From Mycobacterium phage prophiGD11-3: 54,740 nucleotides of DNA. This document shows positions 50,538-54,544 of this stretch, piece by piece. The position numbers were made by a program, and so were the translations under genes. Every line of letters starts with the position of its first letter. Within the stretch, counting starts at the first letter, position 1. Below the pieces are notes generated by a model. The model did no database searches and was not told where the DNA came from. It saw only the letters and a list, made by a program, of their open reading frames with translations. The stretch lies in the sequence record MW584155.1; one strand, written 5' to 3'.

Positions 50538-50890
50538 TGCCCGACTTGACGCCATTCGACGCCAACGACGTCTGGGATCTGCTAGTCGCCGCAGTCGTAA
50601 CTGTTCCGCCCACGATCGCGGCGGTCGCGGCCCTGCTCGTGTTCTGGAAGGGGCGTGACGAAGACCGGCAGAAACTAGGCGAGGTACACCAGACCGCCGC
50701 CGTGGCCGCTGCGGCGGCCACCGCTACGAAAGATCAAGTGCAGAACGGGCATACCACCAAGTACCGCGACGACTTCGACGGCATGAACCACAAAATCGAC
50801 CTACTCGTCGATCGCGTCGACTTGATTCAGACGAACATGGAACTGCTCAACGCCTCACATTTGGCGCTCGTCAAGCGCCTGCAGGGCTAG
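50537..50890 (+). CDS. membrane protein with one TM helix plus coiled coil (second holin or spanin-like)
   Basis: LLVAAVVTVPPTIAAVAALLVFW; GTG start. Confidence 0.45.
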   Translation: MPDLTPFDANDVWDLLVAAVVTVPPTIAAVAALLVFWKGRDEDRQKLGEVHQTAAVAAAAATATKDQVQNGHTTKYRDDFDGMNHKIDLLVDRVDLIQTNMELLNASHLALVKRLQG

Positions 50891-51315
50891 CGCGTCTGGC
50901 GTGCACGGACATCGGTGGTGCCGGACTTCGCGACCACCGCATCGCAGGTGTATGGCTTGGGGCCGGTGTAGCCGCCAAAGCCATTCTTGGCGTTGACCAT
51001 TCCCGATACTGCCAGGTATGTGTCTCCAGCGTTCGGGGCGTAGGCGAGGCCCCCGGGCAGGACCGGCGGGGCTGGTGCGTCGAGGGCTGTCTCGTCTGTG
51101 AACCGTGCGCTGTCCGGGTCTCGTAGACCTTTCCTAATCGCCCCTTGGCATGTCTCGATTGCGTACTTTCGTTTCACTTCGAGGCTGAGCCCGTTGTTGT
51201 GGGAAGACCCACCGGACAGCCCGATCGCGCATGCCGCCATGAACATCAGCAGCCCAACAAACGCCCCCAGAAACACCCACAACGCCTTCGAGGGGGTGTC
51301 TGCCTTTCCCGCCAT
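50887..51315 (-). CDS. membrane-anchored or secreted protein of the reverse cargo cassette
   Basis: N-terminal TM LWVFLGAFVGLLMFMAACAI; stop converges on the 50890 stop. Confidence 0.55.
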   Translation of the reverse strand: MAGKADTPSKALWVFLGAFVGLLMFMAACAIGLSGGSSHNNGLSLEVKRKYAIETCQGAIRKGLRDPDSARFTDETALDAPAPPVLPGGLAYAPNAGDTYLAVSGMVNAKNGFGGYTGPKPYTCDAVVAKSGTTDVRARQTR

Positions 51316-51373
51316 GGACGGCAGATTACAAGATCACGTCCAGGTCAGAGACGGTAATCGCCGGTATTCGGAC

Positions 51374-52120
51374 CTAGTGTGAGACTTCGTCGAGACCGTT
51401 TTCCCGCAGCGTCGCTGTCATCGCTTCTACAACCCGCTCAGCAGGCCAGTCGTCCGGCGCTGAAATCAGCGTGCCCCCGGCCAGCTCAGCCGCGGTTAGC
51501 CGGTCAACAAGATGGCTGACCGTACCGACCTCTGCGCTGATCCACATTCGGTAGCCGACGCCGATCTTCCAGTTGCCACGGCGAGCGAGACGACGCACTG
51601 CGAGATCCGCGAATTCGGTGGTTGCAGGCTCCCACGTCTCGACCACCGCAGCTGTTACGGCGTCGGCATCCACGGACCGCAGCGCGTTCTCATGCGCTTC
51701 ACGGAGCTCGACCGCCAGACGGCGGCGAGGTAGCCGCTGTCCGACTGCTGGGTGACCGGCTGCGATACGCACCAGAGGGGAAACACGGGGGCCTGCGCCC
51801 GAAATGGTGAAGGAGTAACCCTCACCGGGCAGCGCATCACCGATATCTTCCGAGGCCCCTACGAATTCACGAACAGGATGTTTGCGAACTATGTTGACCA
51901 GTTCGTCGGGGGAACCTTCCCACAGTTCCCAACCGTTGTCGGCCGCAAGCTGCCAGCTCGATACGTCGAACGCTGATTGCAACGAACGGAGCAGGCTGTC
52001 GGTGCGTGCGGCGATCCATTCGGGAGATTCGCCAGCTGCTACTCGGAGAGCGAGCAGCGACGGCCGTGATGCGCCCCAGACTGGGTTTTGCACCTCGTTC
52101 ACAGCTGCCACCTCACTCAT
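51374..52120 (-). CDS. putative cognate immunity protein of the polymorphic toxin
   Basis: start ATG overlaps the toxin stop (ATGA on minus strand); cytoplasmic 248 aa; position. Confidence 0.5.
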   Translation of the reverse strand: MSEVAAVNEVQNPVWGASRPSLLALRVAAGESPEWIAARTDSLLRSLQSAFDVSSWQLAADNGWELWEGSPDELVNIVRKHPVREFVGASEDIGDALPGEGYSFTISGAGPRVSPLVRIAAGHPAVGQRLPRRRLAVELREAHENALRSVDADAVTAAVVETWEPATTEFADLAVRRLARRGNWKIGVGYRMWISAEVGTVSHLVDRLTAAELAGGTLISAPDDWPAERVVEAMTATLRENGLDEVSH

Positions 52121-54027
52121 GGTTTCGGAGTGTAGATGACCTCTACACCGTAGACACCGTTTGAATCGAACAGGTCACGAAGGGCCGCAGCACCATAGGG
52201 ATCGGATACGTGCCACTCAAGTCTCGCACCTGGGGGGAGTGCGCCGAGCTGTCGGTCAACTTGTTCGAGCGCCGACTCTGCCCGCCCCGTCCAGTACGCG
52301 TTGTCCGGCGCGAACGCCATGCCCCGAAAGCCATCCTTGGCTTCAAGAAAGACCTCTTGCGGGCCGCGATAGGTGTGCCCGTCGAAGGAAACAGGGGCTC
52401 CCGTATCAAGGTCATGTTGCACCCATTCGGGCAGTGCTCCGCTGGGTGTTCGTTCAATTCCGCCGATTTGTTCCTGGTACGGCATCCAGTCCTTGTCGAA
52501 GTTGTGGTTTATGTGCTTCCAGCCTGGCTCGGTATCGCCCTTGTTCCATGTGGCCTCCGGGGTGCCGGGCGGCCAGCCGCCCGGGTGGTGTGGATCCCCG
52601 GATGCGTAGTGCTGACCGGCGCTTGGGTCAAAAGTGTCAGGCGCGGGTCGGTGAAGTTGGGGCGGCGGGGGCTGTGAGTGATCTAGAGACGGGGCCGGGT
52701 GATCCACAGCGGGCGGCGAGTGGTCGGCCACCGGGGCTGGGTGGGCGGTCGGAGGGTCGACGGATGTGTGCCCTGCCGGGGGTGCATCGTGGGGAAGCAC
52801 TGGCGTGTCGGGCAGACCACCGCGACCAGCAATGGACGCGTCCTCCAGTCCTATCCGGCCGAAGGCGCCCTCGCCGCCTAATGGCACCGTCGTCCCGGCT
52901 ATGGCCGCGTCGACCGTGGTCTTGCCGATGTTCTCGGGGATCTTCTCCGGGTGTTGGTATGAGGTGGCGGCCTGATCGATCACGTTCTTGGCGTCTTCGG
53001 CCATCGCAGCGCCGGGGAACAGTGTGCGTTCGATCTGGTGCTCAAGGCCCTTGGCGCTGTTCGTCCATGATTCGGTGAACTTGTCGGCGCCGTTAAGTCC
53101 CGCCTTGCTTTTGACCTCGTCGATCGTTCCGTCGACGCGCTCGTTGGCGCCTTTAAGGAACTGTTTGGCCACGCCCGAGCCGAAACCGTCCGCAGGCTTG
53201 GGGGCGCCGGGCATCTTGTCGAGTGCCCCGATCGTCCCGGTGAGGCTGCCTGCCTTGCTGGGGTCGATGGTCAGCTTGTCGCCCGCGCCAGGTGTCTTCG
53301 GGTACCACTCCTTGTAATCGGCCACCGCCGCGGTGCTTGCGGGTTTGGTGTCGCCCGCATCGGCGATGTCCTGTATGCCCTCAACAATCCCGTGGGGCTT
53401 GCCGCTGGCGGCGGTCGCCGTGGACAGGCCCTCGCCCGGTGTCGGGTTCACGGCATCACGCAGAATCTTGCGGCCATCGACCAGAGCGGTTTTGGGGTTG
53501 ACGCAGCCGGTGATCTTCTGGGCAGCGGCATCAGCCTGGGCCTTGAGCGTTTGACAGCCCTGCTCCCACTTGGCGACATACTCTTTGATCTGGCGCTCAA
53601 TGTCAGCGACATGTTCGCGGTTGCGGGCTATCGACTCATCGCTCTCACCCTCGGCAGGGTGATATTCCACGTGGTACTGCTGGTCGATCGTCACCCCTCG
53701 GTTCTTGTGCTCTAGCACCCTCTCGATGAGACGTTGGCCATTGACTAGGGGATCAACCACCTCGTATTCGATGGTGGCGGCAACAAGCTTGCTCGCATCT
53801 TCGGCGGTGTCGTTGGTGTTATCAGAGCTGTGACAGTCGGTGGATGCCGTGTCATAAGCTGCGTTCGAAGTGCGCCCGGTCCATTCCGTGCCATTGGGAG
53901 CCCCGACCCACCGCTTGTACTCGTCAAAGACATCCTTGAACTGCCCGGCCTCCGGGTGCCAGGTATCCACCACCGCCATATAGTCATTGGCCTTCTTGGC
54001 CATGAACTCATCAAGCGGCGTCAACAC
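52117..54027 (-). CDS. WXG100-type polymorphic toxin: N-terminal WXG domain, Pro/His-rich linker, C-terminal ~170-aa toxin domain of unassigned family
   Basis: DEYKRWVGAPNGTEW (W-x-G at residue ~38); linker PPAGHTSVDPPTAHPAPVADHSPPAVDHPAPSLDHSQPPPPQLHRP; GTG start with RBS agggg. Confidence 0.7.
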   Translation of the reverse strand: MLTPLDEFMAKKANDYMAVVDTWHPEAGQFKDVFDEYKRWVGAPNGTEWTGRTSNAAYDTASTDCHSSDNTNDTAEDASKLVAATIEYEVVDPLVNGQRLIERVLEHKNRGVTIDQQYHVEYHPAEGESDESIARNREHVADIERQIKEYVAKWEQGCQTLKAQADAAAQKITGCVNPKTALVDGRKILRDAVNPTPGEGLSTATAASGKPHGIVEGIQDIADAGDTKPASTAAVADYKEWYPKTPGAGDKLTIDPSKAGSLTGTIGALDKMPGAPKPADGFGSGVAKQFLKGANERVDGTIDEVKSKAGLNGADKFTESWTNSAKGLEHQIERTLFPGAAMAEDAKNVIDQAATSYQHPEKIPENIGKTTVDAAIAGTTVPLGGEGAFGRIGLEDASIAGRGGLPDTPVLPHDAPPAGHTSVDPPTAHPAPVADHSPPAVDHPAPSLDHSQPPPPQLHRPAPDTFDPSAGQHYASGDPHHPGGWPPGTPEATWNKGDTEPGWKHINHNFDKDWMPYQEQIGGIERTPSGALPEWVQHDLDTGAPVSFDGHTYRGPQEVFLEAKDGFRGMAFAPDNAYWTGRAESALEQVDRQLGALPPGARLEWHVSDPYGAAALRDLFDSNGVYGVEVIYTPKP

Positions 54028-54036
54028 CCAATGCCC

Positions 54037-54357
54037 CTATGCCCGCTTCGGGGACTGATAGATGCTGGGCAGATTGCCGTACCCGGCCGCCAATGAACTC
54101 TCCGTGATCGCGAAAGCACGCTGGGCCTCATCGGCGAAATCAGCGATCGCATTCAGCCGTGCAGCGCCGATCCGCTTGACATCGGCGATAGCCCTCGATA
54201 CCCCATATAGCGCCGCCAAACCCGGATCGGCACCAGCCGGGGCCGCAACACTGGCCGCGGTGCTCCGTGTGAGCTGATCAGCCAGCGTCCGTAGATGCGG
54301 GCCGAGCTTGCCCAACGCCGCAAGATCAACCTTGAGAACGTTCTCATCGCCCGACAC
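54037..54357 (-). CDS. small helical ESX/WXG-associated partner protein (GTG start; ORF open to 54441)
   Basis: ~106 aa helical Ala-rich; RBS gaggggg 9 nt upstream; directly upstream of the toxin. Confidence 0.5.
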   Translation of the reverse strand: MSGDENVLKVDLAALGKLGPHLRTLADQLTRSTAASVAAPAGADPGLAALYGVSRAIADVKRIGAARLNAIADFADEAQRAFAITESSLAAGYGNLPSIYQSPKRA

Positions 54358-54544
54358 GACACACACCCCCTCAGCAAAGCCTCGGCTCGGGGTGAGACTA
54401 CACACAAAGTAGGCGGAGTGCACAGCGGGGATGTATCGCATCTAGCAATCTGTCAGTATCGCTCAGGCGGGGTGCAGGATCCCTCGGTCCAACCGACCTC
54501 ACGGGGGAGCGAAACCTCACCCCGTTGTAGGCATGGGGGCGGGC

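Follow-up and report, generated by a model that had tools for sequence, protein, structure and literature searches.

The last 3.9 kb of prophiGD11-3 (MW584155), a cluster MabF prophage of Mycobacterium abscessus, carry a polymorphic toxin–immunity cassette of an already-known kind, the phage-encoded ESX-secreted toxins (PEST). The DNA analysed here, 54,740 bp long and called the window below, is a complete prophage bounded by its attachment (att) cores, since its bases 1–38 are exactly repeated at 54703–54740, giving 38-bp attL and attR cores. The toxin ends in a predicted DNase domain of the Tox-REase-5 family and is followed by an immunity protein that we place, from profile comparisons and a predicted structure, in a divergent branch of Imm52. 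Relative to the cassettes published under the names "PT-Imm" and PEST there is no difference of substance, and our analysis adds to existing knowledge only the Imm52 assignment, the position of the W-x-G motif in the toxin, the start codon of the small gene and a probable lipoprotein signal in the fourth gene product.

The cassette consists of four co-directional minus-strand open reading frames (ORFs) between the lysis genes and the attR core. They oppose the structural and lysis operon, as a preliminary description of this DNA had stated, and converge with the plus-strand genes, which end at 50890 and whose counterparts in prophage prophi62-2 are annotated as lysin A, lysin B, holin and hypothetical protein. 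Homology searches returned conserved protein homologues for all four, which are therefore genuine genes rather than ORFs that GC-rich DNA contains by chance. The toxin ORF occupies 52117–54027 on the minus strand (636 amino acids, aa) and is divided into its regions in the following list, which gives the basis of each feature in brackets.

50887–51315, minus strand: 142-aa exported protein, probable lipoprotein (PHROG 2320, E = 1.7e-20; alignment)
51374–52120, minus strand: 248-aa immunity protein, divergent Imm52, TsiT-like (ATGA overlap, AlphaFold2 model, Foldseek, hhalign)
52117–52572, minus strand: predicted Tox-REase-5 (PD-(D/E)xK) nuclease domain, toxin residues 486–636 plus stop codon (Pfam PF15648, signature residues)
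52573–52797, minus strand: Pro/His/Ala-rich linker, toxin residues 411–485 (composition; repeated xDHxxP)
52798–53442, minus strand: variable middle region, toxin residues 196–410 (alignment; conserved W321 and GGEGA at 384–388)
53443–54027, minus strand: helical trafficking domain, toxin residues 1–195 (alignments and AlphaFold2 model)
54037–54357, minus strand: small 106-aa partner, "WXG motif protein" in relatives (GTG start; PHROG 18870, E = 4.7e-43)
54358–54702, minus strand: non-coding cassette leader (sequence and alignment of five cassette upstream regions)
54703–54740, unstranded: attR common core (38 bp, exact repeat of attL at 1–38)

Identity of the cassette

A megablast search of phage records gave one full-length match, prophi62-2 (MW584175, host M. 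abscessus GD62), which is 99.7% identical over 50887–54740. Its genes 79–82 are annotated as "membrane protein", "polymorphic toxin immunity protein", "polymorphic toxin protein, REase-5 domain and WXG motif" and "WXG motif protein". The prophage prophiGD11-3 itself appears in Table 1 of Dedrick et al. 2021 (PMC8092301) with a length of 54,740 bp, in cluster MabF and at attB-3. The same study described the "PT-Imm" cassettes, which lie beside attachment junctions, are transcribed leftward, contain WXG-100 motifs, are lysogenically expressed and include Tox-REase-5 among their C-terminal motifs. A survey published in mSystems in 2023 (PMC10654092) introduced the name PEST, distinguished three superfamilies and illustrated recombination among these cassettes with prophiGD08-3, another MabF prophage. 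The three-gene unit by which that survey defines PEST, a small protein, a W-x-G toxin and an immunity protein beside an attachment junction, is present in prophiGD11-3. The attR-adjacent position, the leftward orientation and the order small protein–toxin–immunity are shared with the PEST1 cassettes of M. abscessus prophages, and the toxin N-terminus of the PEST1 representative prophiGD43A-6 (prophi_GD43-6) is 45% identical to that of the prophiGD11-3 toxin. Annotation, homology and structure prediction thus agree with the earlier proposal that the architecture is that of the ESX-type polymorphic toxins of M. abscessus prophages.

The toxin has a 100% identical counterpart in M. abscessus assemblies, many of which contain identical or near-identical toxin, immunity and small proteins. 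This distribution bears on whether the cassette is decayed or silent cargo, with ORFs that are intact by chance or recent acquisition and products that are unexpressed or inactive. The evidence for lysogenic expression does stem from related cassettes and not from prophiGD11-3 itself, but the four reading frames and the catalytic motifs are intact, such copies recur across assemblies, translational coupling is kept, and related cassettes are transcribed in lysogens according to published RNA-seq (PMC8092301), making silent cargo highly improbable. Among the cassettes expressed in that study is that of prophiGD43A-3, in which the toxin is of the Tox-REase-5 type, the immunity gene encodes 248 aa and the fourth gene 142 aa.

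Predicted nuclease domain of the toxin

The effector domain, which the preliminary description thought might be new, belongs to a known family. Residues 514–609 of the toxin match Tox-REase-5 (PF15648) above the Pfam cut-off, covering profile positions 1–94 of 95 with 30.1 bits against a gathering score of 25 (E = 7.4e-7). The family signature of Y, FDG and EAK (Zhang et al. 2012) is intact, being formed by Y517, F548-D549-G550 and E562-A563-K564. TseT of Pseudomonas aeruginosa and TseTBg of Burkholderia gladioli are PF15648 DNases, and their D and K mutants are inactive. The C-terminus of the prophiGD11-3 toxin is predicted on these grounds to be a PD-(D/E)xK DNase, and D549, E562 and K564 are candidate catalytic residues for mutation. 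A search of PDB sequences with the toxin C-terminus alone gave no meaningful match.

Immunity protein

The stop codon of the toxin gene and the start codon of the 248-aa gene overlap as ATGA at 52117–52120, as had been noticed earlier. Among 119 homologues of the 248-aa protein, none is assigned by Pfam to an Imm family, and those that are named are called hypothetical or, by position, "polymorphic toxin immunity protein"; of 32 close homologues, four match Imm52 (PF15579) weakly (best E = 0.01). The AlphaFold2 model of the protein reached a mean predicted local distance difference test (pLDDT) score of 89.1 and a predicted template modelling (TM) score of 0.86. Foldseek matched this model to TsiT/PA3908, both free and bound to TseT (6jdp, 7dym_B, 9oz0_A and 9owg), at a probability of 1.00, with E values from 7.5e-8 to 5e-6 and TM scores of 0.53–0.61, a range that also covers BPSL2088 (4rho). 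A profile of the immunity family searched against 1.8 billion representatives reached proteins that score above the Imm52 cut-off (42.5, 39 and 29.2 bits). In hhalign, the immunity family aligned with an Imm52-like alignment at 99.9% over 222 columns (E = 4.5e-32); the second alignment was picked from the hits of the first, and 10 of its 12 members match Pfam Imm52, so that the independent evidence for Imm52 lies in the Pfam membership of the hits and in the fold match. A profile search of the immunity alignment against PDB sequences returned nothing meaningful. The GGTLI motif of the protein agrees with the "GT" signature of Imm52, the partner family assigned to Tox-REase-5 (Zhang et al. 2012). 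Judged from these profile comparisons and the predicted fold, the 248-aa protein belongs to a divergent branch of Imm52 found in mycobacteria. This naming goes beyond the existing annotation, and the TseT–TsiT complexes offer a structural template for the pair.

A characterised parallel to the toxin and immunity genes is found outside mycobacteria, in TseT–TsiT (PA3907–PA3908) of the P. aeruginosa type VI secretion system (T6SS; PDB 7dym, 9oz0 and 6jdp). The two pairs share the Pfam family of the toxin, the FDG...EAK signature, the immunity fold and an immunity gene placed directly downstream of the toxin gene. They differ in the delivery module, which in prophiGD11-3 is a helical W-x-G domain of type VII secretion system (T7SS) type with a small partner and not a T6SS PAAR/chaperone arrangement; moreover, the immunity proteins are only about 15% identical, and the prophiGD11-3 cassette is prophage-borne in an actinobacterium. 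In Zhang et al. 2012, the T7SS is not listed as an export route of Tox-REase-5, nor are Actinobacteria listed for Imm52.

Relatives of the immunity gene also occur outside intact cassettes. In M. kubicae, an orphan Imm52-like gene follows a toxin C-terminus remnant that is frameshifted over two frames (5567–6705 of that locus). The locus is chromosomal and not part of a prophage, lies beside a RES-domain gene and represents a toxin/immunity cassette in decay; the combination of an orphan immunity gene with a decayed toxin fits a polymorphic-toxin lifestyle. A 433-aa "partial" protein labelled as coming from the eukaryote Aduncisulcus paluster combines Tox-REase-5 with a part 60% identical to the immunity protein; it most likely derives from a mycobacterial contaminant contig in which two genes were fused by a eukaryotic gene caller.

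Putative export region and small partner protein

The preliminary description placed a W-x-G motif of the WXG100 type at KRWVGAPNG in the toxin N-terminus. That sequence exists (W40-V-G42), but G42 is not conserved, and the invariant motif is W49-T-G51, nine residues further on, which is kept in all 35 homologues including a distant subfamily. Its surroundings, EWTGRTSNAAY, form an ESAT-6-like context. AlphaFold2 modelled residues 1–200 with a mean pLDDT of 74.7, high at 80–160 and low (about 45) in the loop. The model has a helix at 13–42, a loop at 43–51 that holds W49–G51, a helix at 52–106, a beta hairpin and a further helix at 130–193. The helical hairpin anticipated earlier for this domain is thus seen as a helix-turn-helix with the W-x-G in the turn, to which a third helix is added. 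Sub-threshold Pfam matches to WXG100 (PF06013) were obtained for seven of the 35 toxin homologues (best E = 0.0025) and to PPE for three, and a profile search of the toxin N-terminal alignment against PDB sequences was non-specific; membership of the toxin N-terminus in the WXG100 family is therefore weakly supported. Further along, Y122-x-P-x-E126 is nearly invariant in the close toxins and absent from the distant subfamily. The sequence Y88-E-V-V-D92, which has the canonical distance of a YxxxD export motif, was rejected as a family feature, D92 not being conserved. A Pfam search with the middle region, residues 196–410, gave no match.

The gene directly upstream of the toxin gene ends only 9 bp before the toxin start and encodes the 106-aa small protein. 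It is nested in a longer ORF of 134 aa that reaches 54441. Most of the 32 homologues found have 106 aa and begin with MSGDENVL, among those listed, and the upstream ATG at 54441 is ATC in prophi62-2. These observations agree with the gene limits of 54037–54357 first suggested for a product of about 106 aa, and sequence comparison makes it probable that both the ORF of 134 aa and the GenBank call of 128 aa for this gene in prophi62-2 are too long. Across its alignment, the family contains no tryptophan and hence no literal W-x-G, so that "WXG motif protein" is a positional label. Its invariant parts are a central GADPG turn region and a C-terminal LPSIYQPP. That tail (54037–54066) has a tyrosine (Y100) but no acidic residue at +4, unlike YxxxD/E, and it may be an export signal. 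A profile search of the small-protein alignment against PDB sequences gave nothing meaningful. Membership of the small protein in the EspC family (PF10824) was considered and rejected, as no Pfam match was found in 20 members and hhalign gave a probability of 1.5% against the PF10824 protein that occupies the same position in an M. fortuitum locus described below. By analogy with PE-, Tap- or Lap-like proteins, we presume that the small protein acts as a secretion helper or co-substrate. A role as partner is suggested by its fixed position upstream of the toxins and by the published AlphaFold heterodimer of a related PEST1 pair, which superimposes on PE25/PPE41, PDB 2G38 (PMC10654092).

Two further systems invite comparison. 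As in the heterodimers PE25/PPE41 and EsxA/EsxB (WXG100), which are classical T7SSa substrates, a W-x-G helix-turn-helix is present on one partner and a helical protein of about 100 aa is encoded directly upstream. The prophiGD11-3 proteins differ in that neither matches these families at the Pfam level, in that the small partner lacks YxxxD/E and has the invariant LPSIYQPP tail, and in that the W-x-G domain is fused to a 440-residue extension ending in the toxin. The second system is the EatA/TapA1/TapA2/EatI locus of M. abscessus subsp. massiliense (Nat Commun 2026, PMC13444075), from the same species, which likewise combines small helical accessory genes, a toxin whose elongated helical N-terminus is joined to a payload that varies at the C-terminus, and a downstream immunity gene; the likeness is one of architecture. 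The payload of EatA is a GH183 arabinanase with the cell envelope as its site of action, countered by a secreted lipoprotein immunity protein, whereas the prophiGD11-3 toxin is a predicted DNase with a cytoplasmic-type immunity protein; the EatA locus has two accessory genes and the prophiGD11-3 cassette has one.

Exchange of toxin and immunity modules

Mosaicism of the cassette is visible in its DNA. The segment 51146–52614 takes in the immunity gene, flanked by the 5' end of the fourth gene and by the part of the toxin from about residue 471 on, and is 92% identical to prophiGD33-1, prophi100A-2 and prophiGD43A-3, so that the toxin C-terminus and the immunity gene travel jointly as a single block. 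The segment 52855–54402, covering toxin residues 1–391 and the small gene, has 88% identity with prophiGD03-1, a prophage in which the toxin carries another nuclease domain at its end. In tblastn searches, the N-terminal module of relatives spans toxin residues 1–474. Because the blocks of DNA identity break at 52614 and 52855, the joint between modules lies in or next to the Pro/His linker. The low-complexity linker itself had been noted before and corresponds to the Pro/His/Ala-rich stretch at about 411–485; no tandem DNA repeat was found beneath it.

In relatives, the N-terminal scaffold (residues 1 to about 400–474) is joined to toxin domains of at least six different Pfam families. The payloads on this shared scaffold are Tox-REase-5, Endonuclea_NS_2, TNT, GH-E, glutamine deamidase, colicin-DNase and WHH, with PF15648, PF13930, PF14021, PF14410, PF15644 and PF12639 as the Pfam identifiers among them. 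One N-terminal region with alternative C-terminal toxin domains is what defines a polymorphic toxin (Zhang et al. 2012), and the prophiGD11-3 protein is one in this sense; the cognate immunity gene directly downstream co-varies with the toxin domain, as also expected of such systems.

This modular construction is relevant to a different role for the cassette, in which the toxin and immunity proteins would form an unsecreted pair of toxin–antitoxin type that stabilises the prophage, or that aborts infection by other phages once immunity is lost. Toxin residues 498–635 (52120–52536) match the PADLOC phage-defence candidate PDC-M17A (E = 6.3e-14), which points to relatives of the nuclease domain in candidate defence systems. 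The abstract of one preprint credits Tox-REase-5 toxins with a potential role in defence and describes their conversion into T6SS effectors by Burkholderia, and viral defence was named as a possibility for PEST cassettes (PMC10654092). A relative of the pair in M. fortuitum is in addition flanked by genes for an SMC-like ATPase, a GIY-YIG protein and a DNA methylase. Against such a role, the PDC entries of PADLOC are candidates only and the toxin domain alone is matched, and an N-terminus of about 470 residues with an invariant W-x-G, a dedicated partner and many payloads would be purposeless if the toxin were purely intracellular. We give defence or addiction a slim chance and prefer a secreted toxin.

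The M. fortuitum locus (3342–8470 of that record) comprises a small protein of the EspC family (PF10824), a 787-aa toxin, an Imm52-like gene and then two Imm33 genes. The 787-aa toxin has a sub-threshold Tox-REase-5 C-terminus and weak WXG100/PPE matches. With its flanking genes, the locus looks like a defence or conflict island.

The N-terminus of the 142-aa protein encoded by the fourth gene, KALWVFLGAFVGLLMFMAAC, is a hydrophobic segment ending in FMAAC, and the cysteine of this motif and two further cysteines are invariant in three homologues. We take FMAAC to fit the lipobox pattern. The plain transmembrane anchor proposed earlier is not what the lipobox-like end suggests, and on this sequence evidence the protein is probably an exported lipoprotein. 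Homologues are found at the same position in 14 prophages. In prophiGD51-1, the homologue lies downstream of a different toxin type (1522–4754 of that locus), in a cassette where two small WXG genes accompany a toxin of 550 aa and an immunity protein of 166 aa. Since the homologue stands beside another toxin type there, the fourth gene accompanies such cassettes without being tied to the prophiGD11-3 toxin, and it seems to travel with the lysis-proximal end of the cassette rather than with a particular toxin.

Proposed mechanism and target of the toxin

We propose that leftward transcription of the cassette would begin in its own leader next to attR, with the remainder of the prophage silent. 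The 106-aa partner would pair with the N-terminal domain of the toxin, and a host type VII (ESX) system, of which ESX-4 is the most plausible, would export the toxin with W49-x-G51 in the helix-turn-helix as signal. Once delivered, the C-terminal Tox-REase-5 domain would act as a PD-(D/E)xK DNase, and in the producer the translationally coupled Imm52-type protein would bind and block the nuclease, as TsiT blocks TseT. The fourth product would be an exported lipoprotein. Recombination within the Pro/His linker or beside it would generate new toxin/immunity pairs. Plasmids lacking imm transformed M. smegmatis inefficiently in two other PEST systems (PMC10654092), and we regard the identity of the prophiGD11-3 cassette as PEST, together with this molecular mechanism, as likely.

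Several results weigh against this reading. The toxin N-terminus has no Pfam match at E <= 1, fold searches with its model returned generic helical bundles and no T7SS substrates, and the toxin alignments contain no YxxxD/E that is conserved family-wide. The small partner has no W-x-G and no family detectable in Pfam or among PDB sequences, and the 248-aa protein itself has no Pfam match to Imm52. Finally, a DNase acting in the cytoplasm needs some route across the envelope of a recipient mycobacterium.

The most likely benefit to the lysogen would be that related mycobacteria without the immunity gene are killed or inhibited, although we hold other mycobacteria as the target cell to be less certain than the identity and mechanism of the cassette. 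Delivery into other mycobacteria that depends on ESX-4 has been demonstrated for the EatA/Tap/EatI locus of M. abscessus (PMC13444075). The toxin could instead be directed at the eukaryotic host, being exported by ESX into an infected cell and causing DNA damage or cell death as CpnT/TNT of M. tuberculosis does, with immunity protecting the producer only. The 2021 study argued for a role in growth in vivo (PMC8092301), and the 2023 survey left pathogenicity, like viral defence, as an option (PMC10654092). A TNT domain is found in sister toxins built on this scaffold, and the isolates of M. abscessus that carry the cassette are clinical. The characterised Tox-REase-5/Imm52 pairs, on the other hand, are antibacterial T6SS effectors, orphan immunity genes in other mycobacteria make sense only with bacterial targets, and rapid joint swapping of toxin and immunity modules is a signature of conflict between bacterial kin (Zhang et al. 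2012). An effector aimed at host cells is in our judgement improbable, and bacterial competitors are the preferred target.

As to how a competitor would be reached, we offer the doubtful suggestion that the DNase is delivered from mycobacterium to mycobacterium through ESX-4, with residues 196–410, the lipoprotein or both giving the route across the mycomembrane and the plasma membrane. If true, it would be the first demonstrated case of a nuclease passed from one mycobacterium to another through type VII secretion, and prophages would be the main vehicle spreading such weapons. Residues W49 and G51 and the corrected start of the small gene are now defined for secretion experiments. Such cassettes are common in clinical M. 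abscessus and probably shape the coexistence of strains within a patient. Phage therapy may be affected as well, because therapeutic or resident phages move toxin/immunity pairs.

Leader and attachment site

The non-coding region 54358–54702, described earlier as adjoining attR, is confirmed by the 38-bp att repeat and the limits of the ORFs. About 45–60 nt before the GTG of the small gene are conserved in four of five aligned cassettes, with divergence farther upstream, and megablast similarity to phage records of other clusters stops at 54402. Within the leader, a –10-like TAGTCT at 54400–54395 is preceded by TG (TG-n-TAGTCT, 54402–54395), and a putative GAGGGGG ribosome-binding site lies at 54372–54366. 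These sequence signals would fit a promoter and ribosome-binding site carried by the cassette itself. A scan with the sigma-70 consensus found no minus-strand promoter, which says little, the –35 element of mycobacterial promoters being poorly conserved.

The sequence of the 38-bp att core resembles the 3' part of a tRNA gene, with its T-arm and acceptor end, and attB-3 is the 3' end of a tRNA according to Dedrick et al. 2021 (PMC8092301). ARAGORN found no complete tRNA in the window. Rfam gave only sub-threshold tmRNA- and tRNA-like matches in the att region (18.5–22.3 bits against a gathering score of 47). A tmRNA at 54585–54740, the match of 18.5 bits, was rejected, since the T-arm and acceptor resembling those of a tRNA within the att core account for it.

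Far from the cassette, GC content peaks at 0.717 at 37001–38000, compared with about 0.64 elsewhere. The peak lies inside a 1175-aa plus-strand ORF (34902–38429), presumed from its size and position to be the tape measure gene.

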